IMG/VR virus record: IMGVR_UViG_2693429557_000011
Length of the DNA: 29,524 nt
Reading direction: 5' to 3' (one strand)
Origin: a virus
Lineage: Duplodnaviria; Heunggongvirae; Uroviricota; Caudoviricetes
Shown: piece after piece, positions 2,999 to 14,655 of the stretch
Position numbering within the stretch: position 1 is the first letter of the stretch
How the letters are laid out: the number at the start of each line of letters is the position of its first letter
Program-made: the position numbers and the translations under genes
Notes under the pieces: generated by a model
What the model was told of the DNA's origin: nothing
The model's database searches: none
The model's input: the letters and a program-made list of their open reading frames with translations, nothing else

Positions 2999-3107
2999 AT
3001 AAACACAAACAAAAATCAATAAGTTAGGTAATTATCAAAGACTTACAGACACACAAAAACACAGCCAACCACAACAAATAACAGAGATGTGGTCAATTTG
3101 TGGATCA

Positions 3108-3662
3108 TCAGCCAACAAATTTAGCAACAAATACAGCAACCGCCGCTGTGAAAATGGTTGTGCACACTGGCACAATAATGCCACTCCAACGCCACTTCGT
3201 ATTATCATCAACCTTGTCAAACCGCCGATTCATCTCATCCATAATCTTGTCAAAGCGTTTATCCATCGCTTCGGTAAGCTCACCCTTCAGGCTGTTAATG
3301 TCTGATTTGAGCTGCTCTTTCAGGTTAGCTGTATCAGATTTAAGCTCACCTTTCAGATTCGCAATATCGCATTCAAGATCACCTTTCAGATGTGCTATGT
3401 CTGCTTTGAGTTCACCTTTCACCTCACCAACATCGGCTTTAGTTGAGAGGTTTGTAGTGCGTTCAGCAAGCGTCGCAAGGTCGTTTCTTGTTAGCGATAA
3501 ATCACCTTCGAGCCGCTCAATTCGCCTTTCAAGTTTATCTGACATTCCGCCTCCACTACTGCCGCCATCGCCACCATGATAAAGCACATCACGCTCAGAA
3601 TGCGACACACTACCTGCTGAATTACCGAAAAGATTTCTTGCTACATTACCCATTATCACCAT
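3108..3662 (-). CDS. Coiled-coil, C-terminally membrane-anchored protein with five 11-residue repeats (184 aa as drawn; probably 145 aa from the internal ATG at 3545)
   Basis: The ORF contains five tandem 11-aa repeats (e.g. KGELKADIAHL, KGDLECDIANL, KGELKSDTANL), encoded by 33-bp DNA repeats. The C-terminus WRWSGIIVPVCTTIFTAAVAVFVAKFVG is a single hydrophobic helix. The internal ATG at 3545 has a GGAGG RBS (ggaggcggaATG), whereas the longer start overlaps the upstream gene by 17 nt. Its GC content is low relative to the phage backbone. Confidence 0.7.
   Translation of the reverse strand: MVIMGNVARNLFGNSAGSVSHSERDVLYHGGDGGSSGGGMSDKLERRIERLEGDLSLTRNDLATLAERTTNLSTKADVGEVKGELKADIAHLKGDLECDIANLKGELKSDTANLKEQLKSDINSLKGELTEAMDKRFDKIMDEMNRRFDKVDDNTKWRWSGIIVPVCTTIFTAAVAVFVAKFVG
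3284..3448. repeat. Five imperfect tandem 33-bp repeats (each starting ctttcag on the plus strand) inside the 3108-3662 ORF
   Basis: This is read directly from the sequence, e.g. ctttcaggttagctgtatcagatttaagctcac, ctttcagattcgcaatatcgcattcaagatcac and ctttcagatgtgctatgtctgctttgagttcac. They encode the 11-aa protein repeats. Confidence 0.85.
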
Positions 3663-4146
3663 CCTGCGCTTTGTCTTTCTCCAACCACTTCAGCACCGCA
3701 GACGTACGATAAAGGCTCAGGTAACCACAATTCAGGCAATGCAGCGTGTAATAAGTTTTGCGCATATCAGGTATGCTCTTAACATCACCCAAAAAAGCAT
3801 AAGATACATAATGCTTTATGTTCTCTTTAATTAACTCACTCTGTTCCTCCAGGGGTAGATTGTTAAAATTTTCTGGTTTCTTATTTTTATCCCAGCAAAG
3901 ATCCATACTTTCTGGAACAGATAATCGCGACGATCCACATGAAGGGCAGACACTGGAGACCCCCTTCTCAGACAAGAAACGGAAGAAGATTTCTGGCGTA
4001 ATCTCCATCAGCCGCTCTTTATGTTTTTTGACACGACTCATCGACTTCTTATTGATTTCATCAGCTTCTTCTTTGCATTTATCTTCTATATATTTCGATA
4101 GTAAATAGTCATATAACTCTTTTTTTGTAGGTTTTTTTATTTCCAT
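3646..4146 (-). CDS. Hypothetical zinc-binding protein (166 aa), very AT-rich
   Basis: Two CxxCG motifs (CPSCG and CLNCG) about 70 residues apart are compatible with a four-Cys zinc site, and the N-terminus is K/E-rich. The start ATG lies 2 nt after the int stop codon, with a GGGAGG RBS inside the int 3' end, so it is translationally coupled to int. GC is about 35 percent versus about 52 percent for the phage backbone. Confidence 0.75.
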   Translation of the reverse strand: MEIKKPTKKELYDYLLSKYIEDKCKEEADEINKKSMSRVKKHKERLMEITPEIFFRFLSEKGVSSVCPSCGSSRLSVPESMDLCWDKNKKPENFNNLPLEEQSELIKENIKHYVSYAFLGDVKSIPDMRKTYYTLHCLNCGYLSLYRTSAVLKWLEKDKAQDGDNG

Positions 4147-4148
4147 AG

Positions 4149-5126
4149 TTACATTCCTCCCAAGGGATTAAACCTCACCGCATCCTGCAAGTAATCCGGC
4201 GCAAGATGGGCATAAATCATCGTTGTCTGAATCTTTGCGTGCCCCAGAATTTTCTGGAGCGTCAGAATATTGCCGCCGTTCATCATGAAATGACTGGCGA
4301 AGGTGTGGCGCAGCGCATGAACAGCCTGGCCGTCAGGAACATCAGGTGCGACCGTTTTGATGACATCGCGAACCAATGAATAATCCAGCGTCGGAAACAC
4401 CAGTTTCCCGCCCCGTTTTTTGATCTTTTCAAACAGGCTTTCAGAAATAGGAACGGTACGGTTTTTGCTGTTCTTCGTTTTTGAAAAAGTGATTCGACAA
4501 TGAAGAACACGGCGCTGCTCCAGTGCCGCTACCTCGCCCCATCGCGCCCCGGTCGACAGAAGGATTTCGACGGCCAGCCGTTCATCGGGATTTTCAGCCA
4601 GTGCATCCAGCAACTGAACACATTCAGACTTACTCAGATATCCCATTTCACGCTCGTTAACCTTCATTCCTTTAAGGCCTTGAACGGGGTTATCGTTAAG
4701 AAAATGGCCGGATGAGATGAGTGCGGTAAACATCGCGCTTAACGCCCCAATCTCTCGATTTATGGTGCTGGGCTGTATCCCCTGCTCTATCCTGGACACA
4801 CGTAGCTCGGTGAGCATCGTTGTATTAAGTTTATGCACGCACGGGTCATCCATTGCCTCACTCAAGCGCAGCAATTTAAGGCGCGTGTTATGCCCTGACT
4901 TCATTAGCTGGCCGTGGTATTTCCACCACAAGTCAATAAGCACTGACAGCGGACGGCGATCAATGGAGTTTCCTTTCCACTCATTGTTATGCTGTTGCGC
5001 CAGCACCCACCGCTCATATAAAACTGCATCCGATTTCGTTTTAAATTTTTTGCGAATGCGTTTGCCTTTACGCCCCTCAGGACGCATGTCAAGAAGATAC
5101 CCTCCCGGAATTGATTTTATGCTCAT
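4149..5126 (-). CDS. int: P2-type tyrosine integrase (about 325 aa, starting at the internal Met MSIKSIPGGY)
   Basis: The sequence aligns along its length with my recall of P2 Int (MAIKKLDDGRYEVDIRPTGRNGKRIRRKF vs MSIKSIPGGYLLDMRPEGRKGKRIRKKF). The catalytic region carries ARWGE, HALRH and a Y in MIYAHL. The six-frame ORF extends to 5276, but the homology starts at 5126. Confidence 0.9.
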   Translation of the reverse strand: MSIKSIPGGYLLDMRPEGRKGKRIRKKFKTKSDAVLYERWVLAQQHNNEWKGNSIDRRPLSVLIDLWWKYHGQLMKSGHNTRLKLLRLSEAMDDPCVHKLNTTMLTELRVSRIEQGIQPSTINREIGALSAMFTALISSGHFLNDNPVQGLKGMKVNEREMGYLSKSECVQLLDALAENPDERLAVEILLSTGARWGEVAALEQRRVLHCRITFSKTKNSKNRTVPISESLFEKIKKRGGKLVFPTLDYSLVRDVIKTVAPDVPDGQAVHALRHTFASHFMMNGGNILTLQKILGHAKIQTTMIYAHLAPDYLQDAVRFNPLGGM

Positions 5127-5175: not shown

Positions 5176-5487
5176 TTAGCCGGGCTGTGTGCCAGTCTTG
5201 CGGGATTTTTGAGAAGACGATGTGTTTTCTGGCCCATCAGGGGAGAGAGAAGGACTGATCTGCCCAGCAGCCTCATTTGTTTCGTTACTCATCAACCACG
5301 TAGTGTATTTTTTAAATTCCGGGTGCATTGTGATTTTCAGTAAAACCTCCGTTCCCACACCTCGAATACCAGTCTCGTATTGCTTAACCGTACCAACCGC
5401 AATACCTATTGAATCCGCGAACTTTGCCTGACTAAGCCCCTCAGATTCTCGAATTGCTTTTAGCTTCTTTGATATCTCTATTGACAT
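5176..5487 (-). CDS. C: P2 C-type immunity repressor (103 aa, start MSIEISKK)
   Basis: An HTH_XRE-like N-terminus is present, and the C-terminal part (HPEFKKYTTWLMSNE..AGQISPSL) resembles P2 C as recalled (QFTKYTLWFMTNQ..SGQIAPAL). It sits directly upstream of int on the same strand, divergent from cox. Confidence 0.8.
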   Translation of the reverse strand: MSIEISKKLKAIRESEGLSQAKFADSIGIAVGTVKQYETGIRGVGTEVLLKITMHPEFKKYTTWLMSNETNEAAGQISPSLSPDGPENTSSSQKSRKTGTQPG

Positions 5488-5582: not shown

Positions 5583-5861
5583 ATGGCAAAAGTCCTTAAC
5601 ACATACGAACAAGCGGATTTTGAGCGTTTGGCGGCGTTCTACCCATACCGTAATGAACATGGGCTACCGGTACTTGAAGAAAGCCTAGAGGATTATGCGA
5701 AACGCACAAATCAAAGCATTCTCGCTGTAAGAAGGCAGGCTGATAGATCGGTAATTCCCGTTACTCAAGAAGGAAGAAACACAAAACGCAAAGTAAATCT
5801 CTTCGCAATTTTCCTGAAAACCATCAGAAACGCAGAGAAATACGTGCAGATGACAAAATAA
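5583..5861 (+). CDS. cox: Cox-like excisionase / early transcriptional regulator (92 aa)
   Basis: It is the first gene of the rightward early operon, divergent from C, and its size matches P2 Cox (91 aa). It is a small basic protein. The call rests on synteny. Confidence 0.65.
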   Translation: MAKVLNTYEQADFERLAAFYPYRNEHGLPVLEESLEDYAKRTNQSILAVRRQADRSVIPVTQEGRNTKRKVNLFAIFLKTIRNAEKYVQMTK

Positions 5862-5875
5862 CGAGGTGTCATTTT

Positions 5876-6214
5876 ATGCTGAAGCAACGCCGTAATTTTT
5901 GTACCGGAACAGAACGCCACGCTAACCGTTTCACTACCAGTGCATCACGCAGCAACATCCGCTACAGCCTGAGTGATACACACGCAACGCCGGATGGCTA
6001 CCCAGTAAAACAAATCGGCGAGCACGCCTGGCTGATTGAGAAAGCTGGAATCGTGATCCACAAATGCCCACGCAATCCGTTTACCGGAAACCGCATTTTT
6101 GCACTGAGCTGTGGCGACAATCAGTTCGGGCAGGATTTCACATTATACGAAGCACTTCGCACGGTTGATCGTCTGCTTCGCGGGCAAAGTTTTATTAAAC
6201 AGGCTGATTTATAA
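5876..6214 (+). CDS. Hypothetical early-operon protein (112 aa)
   Basis: The ORF is in the early operon after cox. I recognise no family; the start codon is uncertain. Confidence 0.45.
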   Translation: MLKQRRNFCTGTERHANRFTTSASRSNIRYSLSDTHATPDGYPVKQIGEHAWLIEKAGIVIHKCPRNPFTGNRIFALSCGDNQFGQDFTLYEALRTVDRLLRGQSFIKQADL

Positions 6215-6224
6215 CAGGTGCTTT

Positions 6225-6512
6225 ATGACCAAAGACAATGCACAAGGTGTATTTATCCGTTTTATTGATTTTCGCGGTGAACTGTTATTACGTGCATCCG
6301 CTATTGACGGAGTGACTCCGGCGGGTAAAAACGGAGCCGACGAAGCCACTTACGTTTATCTGAACGGCACGCGACTGCTTGTGGAACTTCCGTACCAGAC
6401 CGTACGAGAAATCATCAGCGAAGATGAAAAGGCACGCCAGGTTAATGGCGATGAACCCTATATCGAAATTATTTGTATGGATTCAGAAGCTGAAATACAG
6501 AAAGCAGATTAA
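6225..6512 (+). CDS. Hypothetical early-operon protein (95 aa, start MTKDNAQG)
   Basis: The reading frame occupies the position of P2 orf80. The ATG at 6225 sits in the long ORF 6111-6512. Confidence 0.5.
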   Translation: MTKDNAQGVFIRFIDFRGELLLRASAIDGVTPAGKNGADEATYVYLNGTRLLVELPYQTVREIISEDEKARQVNGDEPYIEIICMDSEAEIQKAD

Positions 6513-6520
6513 AGGGCGTT

Positions 6521-6766
6521 GTGATGGGCAAAGAATATAAAACTCTCATTAACAAAGCACTTGAGCGTTTTTATTTTCGCTTAAGTGCATCAGGCGCTCA
6601 TGCTGAACGTGCGGCCCGTGACTCATTGACCAGAGCAATCCGAAGTCTGTATGACGTGGCTTTTTACGCTGATGATCTGGATGCACTTAACGAACTTTCC
6701 GAGCTGATCTGTGCCGCAGAATGCGGGGAACATATTGAACCGTATAAGCTGGGAAATATCGCATGA
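6521..6766 (+). CDS. Hypothetical early-operon protein (81 aa)
   Basis: The ORF is densely packed with its neighbours. No family is recognised. Confidence 0.5.
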   Translation: MMGKEYKTLINKALERFYFRLSASGAHAERAARDSLTRAIRSLYDVAFYADDLDALNELSELICAAECGEHIEPYKLGNIA

Positions 6767-7408: not shown

Positions 7409-7549
7409 GCACCTCCAACTGCCGGAAACCACGTCGGGCTTCAGCAGCTCATCCGGCAGCAAAACAAACTCCATTAATTCCTGTTCCGGGCCTTTCCTGC
7501 ACCTTGCGGCGGGAGGCCTTCGCACATCTGTAACAAGAGGATTGCCGCA

Positions 7550-7915
7550 ATGATTCTCGCCAACGACTTTCTTGAATACCTGCTCAACACAGAGCGTGAT
7601 CTTGCCGCTCGCGTGCGTGATCGTTATGACATGTACCTGAAATCCCTGCCTGTACCGCAGCTCGCTGACGGAAAGATTGTTATTGATGGTCGCTACATGA
7701 TTGACAGCCACGAGGGAAATTACAGGCTTTACCGCATTGAAGGTGGCACCCCGTCCGTTATTGGCATTTACCAGCGCCCATCCTCTGCAATCGTCGATGT
7801 GATTGCCGACAGCATCCGCATCACACATCGCCATGCCGACACAGAAGACACCGTGCTGGAAATTCAGCGGCTGGCTACAGTCTGCCGCGACACCCTGAAT
7901 GGCATGACGAAGTAA
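7550..7915 (+). CDS. Hypothetical protein (121 aa) immediately upstream of the replication gene
   Basis: The ORF has an RBS (aagagga). No family is recognised. P2 has gene B (helicase loader) in this region, but I cannot support that identity. Confidence 0.5.
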   Translation: MILANDFLEYLLNTERDLAARVRDRYDMYLKSLPVPQLADGKIVIDGRYMIDSHEGNYRLYRIEGGTPSVIGIYQRPSSAIVDVIADSIRITHRHADTEDTVLEIQRLATVCRDTLNGMTK

Positions 7916-7921
7916 ATCACT

Positions 7922-10744
7922 ATGACGGCAGAGTACATCAGGGACTGGCAACAACCGCGCCACGCAGTGGGGCGTGAAGGAACGGGGATCCCCGCTCCTG
8001 AATCCGCGCTTTCCTCCTGGCTGGATGCCCACCGGGCAGAGAACGAGCGCCGCCAGGAAATGGCTGATGCGGCGTTCTCCGCCACGCCACTGGGCAACCT
8101 GATTAATAAAAGCCTGGACGCACAGGAAAAACAGGACAAAACCATCACACTGGCAGGAGACGCCAGAAAACAGGCACGCGGCGCGGTGGATGAAGCCATG
8201 GCCTCGCTGCGCCTGCTGCCGTCCTATCTGCGCGATCCGCTTATTCGCCACCTCTCCTTCCTGCGCAAAAAACAGGAAGCCGATCGCCGGAAAGGCAAAA
8301 AGAGCTGGCAGGCGGAACGCTATGCACGCGGAACCCTGCGCAAAATATTCGAACGTCTGGATCGCACTGACGGACACTGGCTGACACCGGGTTATCGCTC
8401 CCTTGCCGGACGTGAACGCCTGGACGATTTGCTTTACCTGCCGCAACTCAACAAACACCAGATACAGACGCTGGCCACCATGACGGCGGCGATGTTCAGC
8501 AGCACCTTCGAAAAACTCTGCGATGGTTTTGGCGCGACTGATGGCGAGCTGACCATGGATGTAACGCTGAAGGCGTATCAGATGCTGGCCCGCATGGCGT
8601 TACACTTACACGCCATGCCTCCGCATTATGACGCACTGACAACAGACAAAGACCGGAGGCACGAACCGGACACAGAACTGCTGCCGGGCGCAATCCTTCG
8701 CCTGACCTGTGCGGAATGGTGGAAACGCAAACTGTGGCTGTTACGTTGCGAGTGGAGAGAAGAACAACTTCGCGCCGCCTGTCTGGTTTCCAGAAAAACA
8801 TCGCCCTATCTGAGCCAGGACGCGTTAAGCGAGTTTCGCGCACAGCGCGAGAAAACACGCGATTTCCTGAAAAGTTTCATGCTGGAAAATGAAGACGGGT
8901 TCACGATTGATCTCGAGACGGTGTATTACGCGGGAGTAAGTAACCCGGTTCACCGTAAGGCAGAAATGATGGCCACCATGAAGGGGCTGGAACTTCTGGC
9001 CGAAGCCCGTGGCGACAAAGCGGTGTTTCTGACTGTCACCTGCCCGTCAAAATACCACGCCACAACGGAGAACGGTCATCCGAATCCCAAATGGAACGGG
9101 GCCACAATGCGCGACTCCAGCGATTACCTGGTTAACACGTTTTTTGCGACGGTCCGCAAAAAACTGAACCGCGACGGCCTGCGCTGGTATGGCATCCGCA
9201 CGGCGGAGCCTCACCATGACGGCACCGTGCACTGGCATATGATGGTCTTTGCTCATCCGGAAGAAATCGACACCATTGTGTCCCACACCCGCGATATTGC
9301 CATTCAGGAAGATCGTCACGAGCTGGGCGATGACATAACTCCGCGCTTTAAGGCGGAGTATGTAGACGGCTCAAAAGGCACGCCAACCAGCTACATCGCC
9401 ACCTACATCGGGAAAAACCTGGACAGCCGCGCCGTGGATGGCATCGACCCGAAAACGGGCAAGCCACGCGTTGACCACGAAACCGGAAAATCAATGGCCG
9501 AGAGCGTGGAACGCGCCATCGGCTGGGCGCGCCTTCACCGGGTCCGCCAGTTCCAGTTCTTTGGCATCCCCTCCCGCCAGGTATGGCGTGAACTGCGCCG
9601 CCTTGCCAGCCAGATGGCACGCAACCCGGAAGGCCCGCAACGGCTGAAGGATGACGCAATGGATGCGGTTCTTGCCGCCGCTGATGCCGGATGTTTTGCC
9701 ACCTACATAGAGAAACAGGGCGGCGTACTTGTTCCACGCAAAGACTACCTGATTCGCACCGCCTACGACCTCGCCGATGAGCTGAACGATTACGGCGAAC
9801 AGAGCGTACAGATTTACGGGATCTGGTCACCACTCATCGGGGAATCCTCCCGTGTGTGCACGCATCCGGATAACTGGAAGCTGGTAAGACGCAAACCGGA
9901 AGCGGAAGACAGCGCCCGCGAAAATGGTTTTGACCTTCAGGGCGGCCCTGCCGCCCCTTGGACTCGTGGCAATAACTGTCCCCGTGTACAGGAAACGGAC
10001 AACAACGGGACAGAACAGCCGGAAGAACGGCCAGCACCGTGGCCGCAGCTCCCTGACGGCGTTGATGTGGATGAATGGATGCGCTCACTGAAACGGCACG
10101 AACGCCGGGCGCTGATGCGTTCGCTTCGTGACAAACAGGCAAAAAACAGCAGTGATGAAATGCAGAGCTGGACACAGAGCCGCAAACAGCAGCGGCCTTT
10201 GCCTGATAACCACGAATTACTCGCTAAAGAATGGCGGGAGTCTGCTGAATCTCTCGGCCTGCATATCGGTGAACAACAGATGCAGCACCTGTTACGGGGC
10301 GGCAGTCTGTACGTTGACGGCAGCATCATTGCACCGCAGGGATTTGAAATTGTACGCAAACCGGATACCCGCCCGGACAGCCGAATCACGCAGCTCTGGC
10401 AGCGCCTGAGCCGTAATCATGGCGTAAGCAGCACGGAGATCCGCCATAACCCGGTCGCCAGCTATCTGACACAGCTGGGGGCATCAGACCCTGAAGCCGC
10501 CGCACGCCTGGCATCCACACTTCAGCAGGACCAGAACACCATGAAAACACCCGTTACCGTGCTTTCTGACATGCTGCGCGCCATCCGCGACGCAGAGCAC
10601 GCACAGAGAATCAGTGAAACCACTGAACGCGCCCGCCGCAAAGCAGACCTGCTGCGGGGTGGCCTGACCAGTGGAAACAAAAAACAGACAGAAACGGGAC
10701 TCACGAATCCCGTAAATGAGCAAAAAACGCGCAGCGATATATGA
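7922..10744 (+). CDS. A: P2 A-type rolling-circle replication initiator (HUH endonuclease), 940 aa
   Basis: The HUH motif VHWHMMVFAHPEE is present, the protein is large, and it occupies the position of gene A in P2-like genomes. The C-terminal ~250 aa are R/Q/E-rich low complexity, and the protein is longer than my recollection of P2 A (~760 aa). Confidence 0.85.
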   Translation: MTAEYIRDWQQPRHAVGREGTGIPAPESALSSWLDAHRAENERRQEMADAAFSATPLGNLINKSLDAQEKQDKTITLAGDARKQARGAVDEAMASLRLLPSYLRDPLIRHLSFLRKKQEADRRKGKKSWQAERYARGTLRKIFERLDRTDGHWLTPGYRSLAGRERLDDLLYLPQLNKHQIQTLATMTAAMFSSTFEKLCDGFGATDGELTMDVTLKAYQMLARMALHLHAMPPHYDALTTDKDRRHEPDTELLPGAILRLTCAEWWKRKLWLLRCEWREEQLRAACLVSRKTSPYLSQDALSEFRAQREKTRDFLKSFMLENEDGFTIDLETVYYAGVSNPVHRKAEMMATMKGLELLAEARGDKAVFLTVTCPSKYHATTENGHPNPKWNGATMRDSSDYLVNTFFATVRKKLNRDGLRWYGIRTAEPHHDGTVHWHMMVFAHPEEIDTIVSHTRDIAIQEDRHELGDDITPRFKAEYVDGSKGTPTSYIATYIGKNLDSRAVDGIDPKTGKPRVDHETGKSMAESVERAIGWARLHRVRQFQFFGIPSRQVWRELRRLASQMARNPEGPQRLKDDAMDAVLAAADAGCFATYIEKQGGVLVPRKDYLIRTAYDLADELNDYGEQSVQIYGIWSPLIGESSRVCTHPDNWKLVRRKPEAEDSARENGFDLQGGPAAPWTRGNNCPRVQETDNNGTEQPEERPAPWPQLPDGVDVDEWMRSLKRHERRALMRSLRDKQAKNSSDEMQSWTQSRKQQRPLPDNHELLAKEWRESAESLGLHIGEQQMQHLLRGGSLYVDGSIIAPQGFEIVRKPDTRPDSRITQLWQRLSRNHGVSSTEIRHNPVASYLTQLGASDPEAAARLASTLQQDQNTMKTPVTVLSDMLRAIRDAEHAQRISETTERARRKADLLRGGLTSGNKKQTETGLTNPVNEQKTRSDI

Positions 10745-10820: not shown

Positions 10821-11780
10821 ATGAAAATTTGTATCGACGACGGCTCCACCAACATCAAGCTGGCATGGACTGAGAACGGCGAACGCCGCAACGCCATCAG
10901 CCCGAACAGCTTCAAGTCGGAATGGTCTGCGCCGTTCGGTGGCATGCAGCCCGCGAACTACATGCTTGATGGCGTGCGCTATGGTTTTGATCCGGTCAGC
11001 GATCGCTTTGTCCAGACAACCGACACGCAATACCAGTACAGCGATGTAAATGTCATTGCCATTCATCACGCGCTGGTCAAATCAGGCATCACGCCACAGG
11101 AGGTGGATGTGGTTGTCACCCTGCCACTGAGCGAGTATTTCGACACAAACGCACAGCCGGACATGGCCAACATCAACCGCAAAAAAGCGAACGTTATGCG
11201 CCCGGTGGAGTACCAGAACGGCGAAGCATTCACTATCCGTAACGTGCGGGTTATGCCTGAATCCATTCCGGCTGGCTTTAAGGCACTGGCTGACATGAGT
11301 CCGTTTGAATCCCTGCTGATTGTGGATTTGGGCGGAACCACGCTGGATGTGGCAAAGGTTCAGGGGCAACTGGCAGGTATCAGCCAGGTGTTTTGCGATC
11401 CACACGTAGGCGTTTCTCTGATGGCCGATGCCGTACTGTCGGTGATGGCCACTAACGGTATGCGCACCAGTCACCACATCGCCAATACCATTATCGAACA
11501 TCGCCATGATGAAGCCTGGCTGCGCCAGCACATCCACAATGACGCGCATTACGCCAGCCTGATGGCGGTTATTCGTGAAAAGGAAGAAACACTGAAACAA
11601 CGCGTGATCCGCGCGCTGGCGGGTTTTTCGGGTTACGGGCGGGTGATGGTTGTCGGTGGAGGGGCGGAGATTGTGGCACCCGCTATCCGCGAAGCCTGCG
11701 GAGTTAATGCGACTTTCATCGCGGACGGGGTGCCACAGTTTGCTCTGGTTAATGGGCTGTACGCAATGGACAAGGAGTAA
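10821..11780 (+). CDS. parM: ParM/StbA-family actin-like segregation ATPase (319 aa)
   Basis: The N-terminus MKICIDDGSTNIKLAW matches my recall of the plasmid R1 ParM (StbA) N-terminus MLVFIDDGSTNIKLQW. Further actin-fold motifs LIVDLGGTTLDV and VMVVGGGAEIV are present, and the length matches ParM (~320 aa). Confidence 0.85.
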   Translation: MKICIDDGSTNIKLAWTENGERRNAISPNSFKSEWSAPFGGMQPANYMLDGVRYGFDPVSDRFVQTTDTQYQYSDVNVIAIHHALVKSGITPQEVDVVVTLPLSEYFDTNAQPDMANINRKKANVMRPVEYQNGEAFTIRNVRVMPESIPAGFKALADMSPFESLLIVDLGGTTLDVAKVQGQLAGISQVFCDPHVGVSLMADAVLSVMATNGMRTSHHIANTIIEHRHDEAWLRQHIHNDAHYASLMAVIREKEETLKQRVIRALAGFSGYGRVMVVGGGAEIVAPAIREACGVNATFIADGVPQFALVNGLYAMDKE

Positions 11781-11784
11781 ACCA

Positions 11785-12096
11785 ATGACGACACCAACCA
11801 GACGGATAAGTTTCTATCTGAAGCCTGCGGCCGTCAAGAACGAAAGCGAAGCATGCGCCTGGCTGGGCAGCCTTACACCAGAAGCCCGCAAAAGCGGCCA
11901 ACGCGTGGCTTTTCTGGCCGGGCTGGCACTTCTGAAAATGAATCCAGCAGAGGCTTACCGACTGGCTGCATGGGCTGACGATGAGGCGTTATCGGTGACA
12001 CAAACCAGGACAGAACGCCCCGTGCCACAGCCAGTACCAACCGCACAGATAACCAGTCAGATAGCAGGGAATATCCGGGCATTATTTCCTGAATGA
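11785..12096 (+). CDS. parR: ParR-like centromere-binding adaptor (103 aa, start MTTPTRRISF)
   Basis: It lies 4 nt after the parM stop with an AAGGAG RBS. Segments RISFYLKP, RVAFLAGLALLKMNP and IRALFPE resemble R1 ParR as recalled (RTIAFKLNP, RAALTAGLALYRQDP, ILRSLFPKE), and the gene order parM-parR matches R1. Confidence 0.65.
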   Translation: MTTPTRRISFYLKPAAVKNESEACAWLGSLTPEARKSGQRVAFLAGLALLKMNPAEAYRLAAWADDEALSVTQTRTERPVPQPVPTAQITSQIAGNIRALFPE

Positions 12097-13608: not shown

Positions 13609-14655
13609 TCAGGATGTGGGCTGGGTGTCTAACAGTGCGTAAGGGTTAAAGCGGATCACCTCTTCGCCAAGCCAGTCATTGATGTGCTTCATGGCCTCCA
13701 TGACGGGCATCAGCTCGTTAATTGCGTAAACCCGCGCGGCCTTCTCCACATCACCAAACGCACTTTTTTCGCCCGGCATCGCCCCCATCAGTTGCGGCGG
13801 AACGCGGTGCGCAGCCAGCACATCATCACGGGATGCCGCCTTAACATTCATGAACTCATCCTTTGCGGTGATCTGCTGGAACGGCAAAATTTGCACCCCC
13901 TCTTTGCCCCCGTTGGGCGCATGAATGAGCACGTTTTTAAACGCACCACCACCACGTGCCCCCTGTAGCGTTTCTTTCAGGGAGTCCATGCTTTCGCGGT
14001 TTACCTGCGCTGCACCGATGTAGATGATGCACCCGGCGTGGGATCCGTTGTCGTAGTACAGTTTTCTGAACATGTCCGCCGAATGAGAAAGGCTGGCCGA
14101 GAGTAATGCGCCAAGATATTCCGGCATGCCGTAGATTTCCTGGTTAATATCCGGATTCATCAGGTGGCACACTTTGCCAGGACGAAACTGAAACGCATCC
14201 TTGCCATCCTGCACATACCACCATGATTCAAGATCGCTTCCGCGTCGCATGTATTTCGCCAGGGCGTGCCGTAATTTAAGCGGTTCGCCGAGCATATTGC
14301 TCCGAAGCTCAAGGAATGCGTTACCGAACACAAACCAGTCCAGCGCCAGCGCCGAGAAATCCTGCCGGGAAAGCAGCGGGTGCGGAATATAGCAGCCGAG
14401 CAATACATTGCGCTTAAAGTAAAGCGCAGACTGATGCCAGGACGTTTGCCGGGCAGCTCTTGCCAGACCGTACCAGTCCACCGGGGTTTCATACCACCGC
14501 CCGTTATCAGCACAGTACATATTGTCCAGCAGGTCATGCCCGGTCAGGCGGTAAGGACCATCAAATGTGAATGCACTGAGCGACGATTCTTTCCTGAGCG
14601 CATCAGCGAGATCAATGCGTGAACTCATGCGCACTTTTTTATTTTTTCTGCTCAT
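13609..14655 (-). CDS. Q: Portal protein (P2 Q-like, 348 aa)
   Basis: The size matches, it is co-oriented and overlaps terminase P (ATGA), and it is divergent from the O-N-M-L block exactly as in P2. Confidence 0.9.
   Translation of the reverse strand: MSRKNKKVRMSSRIDLADALRKESSLSAFTFDGPYRLTGHDLLDNMYCADNGRWYETPVDWYGLARAARQTSWHQSALYFKRNVLLGCYIPHPLLSRQDFSALALDWFVFGNAFLELRSNMLGEPLKLRHALAKYMRRGSDLESWWYVQDGKDAFQFRPGKVCHLMNPDINQEIYGMPEYLGALLSASLSHSADMFRKLYYDNGSHAGCIIYIGAAQVNRESMDSLKETLQGARGGGAFKNVLIHAPNGGKEGVQILPFQQITAKDEFMNVKAASRDDVLAAHRVPPQLMGAMPGEKSAFGDVEKAARVYAINELMPVMEAMKHINDWLGEEVIRFNPYALLDTQPTS

Follow-up and report, generated by a model that had tools for sequence, protein, structure and literature searches.

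Two overlapping minus-strand genes lie between the integrase gene int and the attachment (att) core of a P2-like prophage in virus record IMGVR_UViG_2693429557_000011, a stretch of 29,524 nucleotides that we refer to as the window. Gene 1 (3646-4146) encodes a 166-residue predicted soluble Cys4 zinc-ribbon protein, and gene 2 (most likely 3108-3653) encodes a 181-residue DUF1640/CCDC90-like coiled coil with a predicted tail anchor. The two form a translationally coupled cargo cassette, here appended to the C-int operon of the prophage. Comparison of homologues indicates that the pair is a conserved, always-paired cassette of Enterobacterales temperate phages and an old companion of P2-like lysogeny modules, in which gene 1 appears to be inherited together with the N-terminal peptide of gene 2, as a single unit beside a stalk and anchor that stay constant. 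We tentatively propose that the cassette functions in inter-phage conflict.

Locus and gene coupling

The window consists of an Escherichia coli chromosome segment (nlpC-btuD-btuE-btuC, with btuC at 1935-2915 on the host side of the junction) followed by the prophage, for which the Prokaryotic Genome Annotation Pipeline (PGAP) annotation of an identical locus gives the series C, int, a cox-like gene, A, then Q, P, O, N, M, L and others. C encodes a helix-turn-helix immunity repressor (5176-5487, minus strand; Pfam HTH_3, PGAP) and is the first gene of the presumed lysogenic operon. The integrase gene (4149-5126, minus strand; Pfam Int_N and Phage_integrase, PGAP) encodes a P2-type tyrosine integrase of 325 residues as annotated. 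The match to prophage-free E. coli genomes stops at position 2998, the last base of a 25-bp att core (2974-2998; AAAGAAAAAAGGCCGCAGAGCGGCC on the plus strand). On the minus strand this core is a GC hairpin with a T-run, namely the duplicated ihfA terminator, and it scored as 6 GC pairs plus T7 in a terminator scan. A second identical core adjoins ihfA at the far end of the prophage, seen at 14424-14448 of the locus from E. coli O26 RM8426 (L025), which carries the same prophage. The phage integrates into the rho-independent terminator of ihfA, upstream of btuC, and duplicates that terminator. One copy still terminates ihfA, and the other stands between the lysogeny operon and btuC.

Since host homology ends at 2998 and the 25-bp direct repeat is present at both prophage ends, gene 1 and gene 2 lie inside the att-bounded element. 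A first-pass annotation of the window had placed two minus-strand genes between the int stop codon and btuC, and between int and the chromosomal junction. Both open reading frames (ORFs) are present and both belong to the element, but they do not abut the chromosome directly: an untranslated stretch of 109 nt on the phage side (2999-3107, minus strand), running from the gene 2 stop to the att core, and the 25-bp core itself intervene. This stretch is 95% identical in the prophage of E. coli 2014C-4587 (L016), beside a wholly different pair allele, and thus represents a downstream recombination flank.

The junction of int and gene 1 reads TTG GGA GGA ATG TAA CT ATG GAA. The gene 1 ATG (4144-4146) stands 2 nt past the int stop codon (TAA, 4149-4151), and a Shine-Dalgarno element, GGAGGA (4155-4160, minus strand), can be read from the sequence in the last int codons, 8 nt upstream of that ATG, as the first-pass annotation had described. 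Its 17-nt overlap of gene 1 and gene 2, by contrast, is a product of the longest ORF alone (3108-3662, 184 aa in the ORF table). At the start conserved among homologues, ATG 3651-3653, gene 2 overlaps gene 1 by 8 nt (ATGGGTAA) and encodes 181 aa, and a Shine-Dalgarno-like AGGA read from the sequence (3662-3665, minus strand) lies inside gene 1, 8 nt upstream. The same 8-nt overlap is found in Salmonella, E. coli, Providencia, Morganella, Pectobacterium and one uncultured relative, and in Serratia, Klebsiella, STEC388 and others the genes overlap by 1-4 nt or abut directly. PGAP starts gene 2 further downstream, at 145 aa (3108-3545), which omits 36 upstream codons whose architecture is conserved across distant homologues; this call is probably truncated. 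The conserved overlap, the upstream AGGA and the conserved peptide-linker architecture together lead us to take 181 aa as the gene 2 product. The gene 2 homologue of Klebsiella phage ST101-KPC2phi6.1 is likewise annotated from an internal start. We rejected plus-strand ORFs antisense to gene 2 (for example 3100-3579) as most likely repeat-driven shadows of the coiled-coil frame. A long antisense ORF opposite the Klebsiella homologue (L010, 3874-4308, minus strand) is most likely a shadow too.

After int, the sole strong terminator-like hairpin is that of the att core, downstream of gene 2; two weak ones fall inside the coding sequences of int and gene 2. The pair is in this sense fused to the 3' end of int, as previously stated. 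A promoter scan of the window revealed no promoter-like site upstream of gene 1. Given the spacing of 2 nt from int, the simplest reading is that gene 1 and gene 2 are co-transcribed with int and, if P2 is a guide, also with C, starting at Pc. The transcript would start with C and int at the lysogenic promoter and end at the att-core terminator. Viewed as a moron, the pair of the window is thus fused to int without a promoter-like site of its own, has the att core as its terminator, and has a GC content of 42% against 54% for the rest of the prophage. The Morganella copy, in which the pair lies apart from int, has a consensus match to a promoter (TTGACT-17-TATTAT) about 50 nt upstream and a consensus match to a terminator with a 13-bp stem after gene 2.

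The zinc-ribbon protein and its coiled-coil partner

Gene 1 carries two CxxC knuckles, C67-P-S-C70 (3937-3948, minus strand) and C137-L-N-C140 (3727-3738, minus strand). An alignment of 32 homologues shows that all four cysteines, together with G141 and W154, are invariant, and that variation is found in the N-terminal helix and in the insert between the knuckles. The AlphaFold2 (AF2) model, with a predicted local distance difference test (pLDDT) score of 86.5, displays a long N-terminal helix (residues 8-46), a short helix, a small beta domain that holds both knuckles, and a C-terminal helix; beta-strands border both knuckles. With two family-conserved CxxC knuckles on predicted beta-hairpins, gene 1 is read as a Cys4 zinc-ribbon protein for which zinc binding is predicted, in agreement with the zinc-type protein of the first-pass annotation.

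Beyond this fold class gene 1 has few relatives to lean on. It matches PHROG 4293 ('unknown function') with an E value of 8.1e-23, and 13 of the 32 family members match Zn_ribbon_13 weakly. Weak zinc-ribbon matches are all that Pfam, NCBIfam and PADLOC gave, with no family above threshold, and Foldseek found no significant neighbour in PDB (best E 0.46) or BFVD (best E 3.6e-3). We found no hydrophobic segment in the protein, the charge of which is near-neutral (29 K+R vs 27 D+E). Neither this charge nor its generic resemblance to zinc ribbons supports the DNA-binding sensor role that had been suggested for it.

Gene 2 is built of a flexible N-terminus, a long stalk and a membrane helix. Residues 1-36 (3546-3653, minus strand) start with a peptide that is variable (…SERDVLY), pass into a Gly-rich linker, HGGDGGSSGGG, and are predicted to be disordered (AF2 pLDDT <50). 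Peptide and glycine linker were seen in all gene 2 partners examined, with the exception of two distant partners that lack a glycine run (L019 and L020). The remainder is modelled as a continuous helix (38-147) and a second helix (150-180), at a monomer pLDDT of 60.9. At the base of the stalk stands a motif of the beta-layer type, L-S-T-K-A-D (residues 69-74; 3432-3449, minus strand), whose T71, K72 and D74 are invariant among 26 homologues. The DUF1640 beta-layer consensus is [aliphatic]-A-T-K-[polar]-[DE] (PMC4786415), and gene 2 of the window fits it except for S in place of A; other alleles read F-A-T-K-S-D. Further along, a 33-bp tandem repeat of 3.2 copies (tandem repeat finder; 3317-3421, minus strand) codes for 11-residue repeats, LKGELKxDIAx, the number of which differs between close alleles. 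The hydrophobic period of the stalk is 3.67, indicating hendecads. Residues 150-180 (3114-3206, minus strand) form a predicted C-terminal transmembrane helix, or tail anchor, with a conserved W154 ahead of the membrane helix and a single residue after it; the Kyte-Doolittle 19-residue maximum of 2.43 falls at residues 159-177, the sole strongly hydrophobic stretch of the protein. The earlier description of gene 2 as a membrane-anchored coiled coil therefore holds for both the helix 38-147 and the hydrophobic C-terminal helix.

The first-pass annotation recognised neither protein, which was overstated for gene 2; gene 1 has no structural or functional relative. Gene 2 scores 24.1 bits against PF07798, where the gathering cut-off is 33.5, and close homologues (P0019, P0020, P0025 and others) have recorded PF07798 matches. 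NCBI/PGAP names a protein identical to gene 2 DUF1640/CCDC90, and the gene matches PHROG 9415 ('unknown function'; E 6.5e-15). The family profile matches PDB entry 6h9l and the engineered beta-layer coils 7o92 and 5apz with marginal E values of 1e-4 to 0.02; 6h9l and 7o92, the best PDB sequence matches of gene 2, were deposited as three chains. These comparisons place gene 2, as judged from sequence, in or beside the described DUF1640/CCDC90 family of beta-layer coiled coils (PF07798: MCUR1, CCDC90B and prokaryotic homologues). Like the members of that family, gene 2 has a stalk that opens with (L/F)-(S/A)-T-K-x-D and ends in a membrane helix. Unlike them, it has a disordered peptide and glycine linker instead of a folded head, a variable number of LKGELKxDIAx hendecads, an obligate zinc-ribbon partner gene and a Pfam score below threshold. 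Our literature search turned up no work on the function of any DUF1640 protein from bacteria or phages.

Distribution and allele exchange

A word-indexed search of 5.8 billion proteins returned 42 clusters of gene 1 homologues, and an exhaustive hidden Markov model search of 1.84 billion representatives returned 181 clusters at 50% identity, all of 57-180 aa. Where the source is named, all are Enterobacterales: Escherichia, Shigella, Salmonella, Klebsiella, Serratia, Yersinia, Morganella, Providencia, Pectobacterium, Dickeya and Sodalis. Gene 1 of the window gave zero tblastn matches in 50,697 phage records and none in plasmids; phage matches arose only when more distant alleles served as queries. 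An alignment scan of genome contigs, with one genome per species, recovered a single locus (Providencia stuartii), and gene 1 is accessory and rare at this sampling. Among 5426 complete E. coli genomes, 23 contain this exact region, their serotypes being O26, O145, O103 and O157:H7, and 23-37 contain the pair allele. The lineages that host the prophage are Shiga-toxin-type E. coli.

Wherever we found the pair (E. coli, Salmonella, Klebsiella, Serratia, Morganella, Providencia, Pectobacterium and uncultured relatives) the two genes were adjacent and in the same order, with the gene 2 start overlapping or abutting the gene 1 stop. Comparison of P2-like prophages shows that it recurs in three positions around C, int and att. 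The order is C-int-gene 1-gene 2-att in P2-like prophages of E. coli, Salmonella, Klebsiella and Serratia, C-gene 1-gene 2-int in two uncultured P2-like contigs, and gene 1-gene 2-int in Pectobacterium. In Morganella and Providencia the pair follows host sequence, with ogr and D further along and attP between int and gene 1. The siphophages Salmonella SPN3UB (gp24/gp25, overlapping by 8 nt) and Klebsiella ST101-KPC2phi6.1 also carry distant alleles of the pair, within an accessory region that has an Arc/Ant immI-like block on one side and the tape-measure gene on the other. The DUF1640 genes of Liberibacter SC2 and APSE-1 have no zinc-ribbon partner and adjoin replication genes.

The cassette is poor in GC throughout this range. 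In the window, gene 1 has a GC content of 38.5%, gene 2 one of 45.2% and the two together 42.1%, with int at 49% and the remaining prophage at about 54%. Thus the pair is AT-richer than the phage backbone, as the first-pass annotation had noted, although not as low as the 35% given there. The recent horizontal acquisition deduced from this figure is not supported: cassette GC lies 2-13 points under its surroundings at all 13 of 13 loci, in six genera, which makes low GC a trait of the family and no sign of a recent event here.

Across E. coli prophages between which the cassette has been exchanged, int is 98-100% identical and the pair 30-74%. Three comparisons with the window reveal how the exchange is organised. 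In one E. coli prophage (L005), int is 98-100% identical, gene 1 falls to 55-74% nucleotide and 54% protein identity, and gene 2 is again 95-100% identical from about 3620 downwards. In E. coli 2014C-4587, at the same att site, int is 98-100% identical and the whole pair only 30-46%, with a gene 1 of 120 aa and a gene 2 of 145 aa. In STEC388 (L024), gene 1 is of the short type, annotated at 132 aa and reaching 137 aa if read from the first TTG, and is followed by a gene 2 that is near-identical to that of the window from the glycine linker to the C-terminus and bears an unrelated N-terminal peptide. Gene 1 is thus exchanged together with the N-terminal peptide of gene 2, and the rest of gene 2 remains about 99% identical. 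This co-inheritance on a constant stalk suggests that the peptide docks gene 1, and we propose residues 1-36 of gene 2 as a docking peptide. Together with the invariable pairing and the overlapping or abutting starts, the co-swapping agrees with the two-component unit that had been predicted.

Both genes are maintained as protein-coding genes under purifying selection. Among alleles 97-98% identical, gene 1 has a ratio of nonsynonymous to synonymous polymorphism (pN/pS) of 0.07-0.24 and gene 2 one of 0.13-0.35, compared with 0.00-0.12 for int. One might take the two for chance or decaying ORFs without function, as PGAP calls one a 'hypothetical protein' and truncates the other. The selection on both genes, the conservation of cysteines and architecture across genera, the confident AF2 model of gene 1 and the existence of PHROG families for both effectively refute this view.

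The gene orders bear on another explanation, in which the pair serves the cycle of the phage itself as a membrane-tethered factor for lysogeny, for the control of integration and excision, or for a lysis step like that of XhlA. The link of the pair to C and int in three P2-like gene orders, the siphophage pair beside the immI-like Arc/Ant region, and the unpaired DUF1640 genes next to replication genes in Liberibacter SC2 and APSE-1 would all suit such a role. Likewise, the C-terminal part of gene 2 weakly matches PHROGs of the holin/XhlA type (phrog_689, E 0.004; phrog_1193, E 0.023), and XhlA (PF10779; PHROG 1193) resembles gene 2 in having a short coiled coil, after which come a conserved W and a membrane helix at the C-terminus. 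XhlA differs in that it has no zinc-ribbon partner, and, unlike XhlA lysis proteins, the pair resides in the lysogeny operon, with the holin, endolysin and spanin genes of the prophage elsewhere. We rejected membership of gene 2 in an XhlA/holin-like family on E values of 0.004-0.023 and a location outside any lysis cassette. Moreover, the pair is not core, as the tblastn result in phage records and the 23-37 of 5426 E. coli genomes with the allele attest, and in SPN3UB it does not adjoin int. Its alleles reassort independently of those of the C repressor (immunity) while int stays constant, which makes it less likely that particular alleles of the pair work with the switch of their own phage. 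We consider a role in the phage's own cycle unlikely.

Cargo sites and possible function

In P2-like phages, the interval from int to att has been published as a minor hotspot for defence, with 3% of P2 defence systems (PMC13586616), which supports the earlier view of this interval as a site for defence cargo. The cI-int interval is a hotspot in K139-like phages (PMC9122126), and the tail-to-CI interval has been reported as a defence or variability hotspot of P2-like phages (bioRxiv 10.1101/2024.10.15.618418). The pair behaves like the cargo of P2 hotspots (old/tin, Z/fun, int-att and C-int) in that it sits in int-att, has relatives in C-int, and is replaced between conserved flanks. It is unlike such cargo in that each variant sampled at this att site is an allele of the same two-gene family and no unrelated system. 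In another P2-like prophage (L019) the int-att interval holds a 359-aa PIN_12 protein (5687-6766), and the pair lies there between C and int; the interval thus accepts unrelated cargo elsewhere.

An arrangement of this kind has a precedent in lambda, where rexA and rexB are appended to the lysogenic repressor operon and encode one soluble and one membrane product. The pair is likewise appended to a repressor operon, with one soluble and one membrane product predicted. The likeness ends there: we found no similarity in sequence or fold, and RexB is polytopic and channel-like, whereas gene 2 has one tail-anchor helix.

We propose, at somewhat below even confidence, that the pair functions in inter-phage conflict, that is, in superinfection exclusion or abortive infection by a membrane-tethered complex expressed in the lysogen. 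Gene 2 would form a trimer held by its tail anchor in the inner membrane, with its N-terminus and bulk in the cytoplasm. Its N-terminal peptide would dock gene 1 and so hold the zinc-ribbon protein at a set distance from the membrane. Gene 1 and the docking peptide would be the exchangeable specificity or sensor part, and the stalk and membrane helix of gene 2 the constant scaffold or effector. That the pair amounts to a new two-component anti-phage system, in which a constant trimeric DUF1640 stalk displays an exchangeable cartridge of zinc ribbon and peptide below the inner membrane, is a bolder claim, possible but rather doubtful.

Several points weigh against a conflict function. Transcription in the lysogen is presumed, and the promoter scan gave no match for Pc. 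A lone tail-anchor helix is not an obvious killing effector. All sampled contexts of the pair are prophages, with no chromosomal defence island among them, and in other phages unpaired DUF1640 proteins stand in lytic and replication neighbourhoods. No homology links the pair to a validated defence or exclusion system. PADLOC-DB v2.0.0 returned for the window proteins coiled-coil-type matches (LmuB and ZorA, E 4e-5 or weaker), which for the pair are coiled-coil noise, and one DUF3800 match at E 0.005; no model matched convincingly. Just 9 of the 32 gene 1 homologues weakly match positions 155-282 of PDC-S64, an unvalidated PADLOC candidate (best E 2.8e-6), and the copy of the window is not among them. 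Our search of the literature found nothing functional on DUF1640 in phage, on tail-anchored superinfection exclusion proteins, or on PDC-S64.

The weak matches to PDC-S64 of five of these homologues (P0005, P0009, P0014, P0075 and P0077) are co-linear and cover positions about 155-282 of its 339 positions. This could mean that a domain like gene 1 is part of this larger candidate defence protein. Short-form gene 1 alleles have no PADLOC match.

The position of the pair, typical of a moron, and its lower GC would also fit lysogenic conversion, in which the pair alters envelope, stress, division or virulence traits of the host in ways unrelated to phages. The hosts are Shiga-toxin-type E. coli of serotypes O26, O145, O103 and O157, and the eukaryotic relatives of gene 2, MCUR1 and CCDC90B, are membrane scaffolds for other membrane complexes. 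Against this, AF2 models and hydropathy reveal no signal peptide and no secreted or surface-exposed part in the pair, the bulk of which is predicted to be cytoplasmic. Neither Pfam nor NCBIfam gave a virulence or metabolic family match, and alleles that exchange a part resembling a specificity determinant are seen more typically in conflict systems. Lysogenic conversion is accordingly an explanation to which we assign a low probability.

Still less probable, in our judgement, is that the pair stabilises the prophage as a toxin-antitoxin or addiction cassette, with gene 2 as the membrane toxin and gene 1 as the zinc-ribbon antitoxin. Points in favour are that two small genes overlap and are inherited together, that one of them encodes a predicted membrane protein, and that a hok/gef gene lies at the other end of the same prophage. 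The antitoxin MqsA, moreover, has a zinc ribbon, to which gene 1 bears a faint structural resemblance (rank 44). Matches of the window proteins in Pfam, NCBIfam and PADLOC include no toxin or antitoxin family, however, and the presumed antitoxin is devoid of a DNA-binding domain. Nor do small membrane toxins typically have a stalk as long as this one (about 110 residues) with a variable number of repeats.

The prophage carries further cargo at other sites. The old/tin hotspot between A and the portal gene Q (10821-12096, plus strand) holds a plasmid-type ParM segregation gene (10821-11780, 319 aa), followed in the annotation of the identical locus by a 'plasmid partitioning/stability' gene and two hypothetical genes; segregation cargo of the ParM type is unusual for an integrating P2-like phage. 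The gpA-type replication endonuclease (7922-10744, plus strand) has 940 aa, and other P2-like loci have about 776-947 aa. At about 7434-7553 of the window, in the early region, the PGAP annotation of the identical prophage has a pseudogene fragment of the 'ash family'. In E. coli O26 RM8426, beyond the part of the prophage that the window covers, a 500-aa PIN-domain protein is encoded between D and ogr (L025, 11822-13324) and a toxin gene of the Hok/Gef family between ogr and attR (14019-14159); a serine O-acetyltransferase gene occupies the Z/fun position in that strain. The tail-fibre region of the window differs from that of this strain.

The pair is uncharacterised prophage hotspot cargo of a familiar kind, with an unusually clean modular allele structure. 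If it does not act in defence, it is one among many such cargo pairs. Its natural allele swaps, in which gene 1 and the peptide change on an identical stalk, are ready-made material for specificity-swap experiments. Should the conflict function prove true, the pair would represent a new architecture among phage defences, in which a flexible peptide docks a small zinc-ribbon sensor to a coiled coil with a tail anchor, and would confirm the little-studied int-att and C-int intervals of P2-like phages as sites for new systems. It would also provide a first function for the prokaryotic and phage branch of the DUF1640/CCDC90 family.

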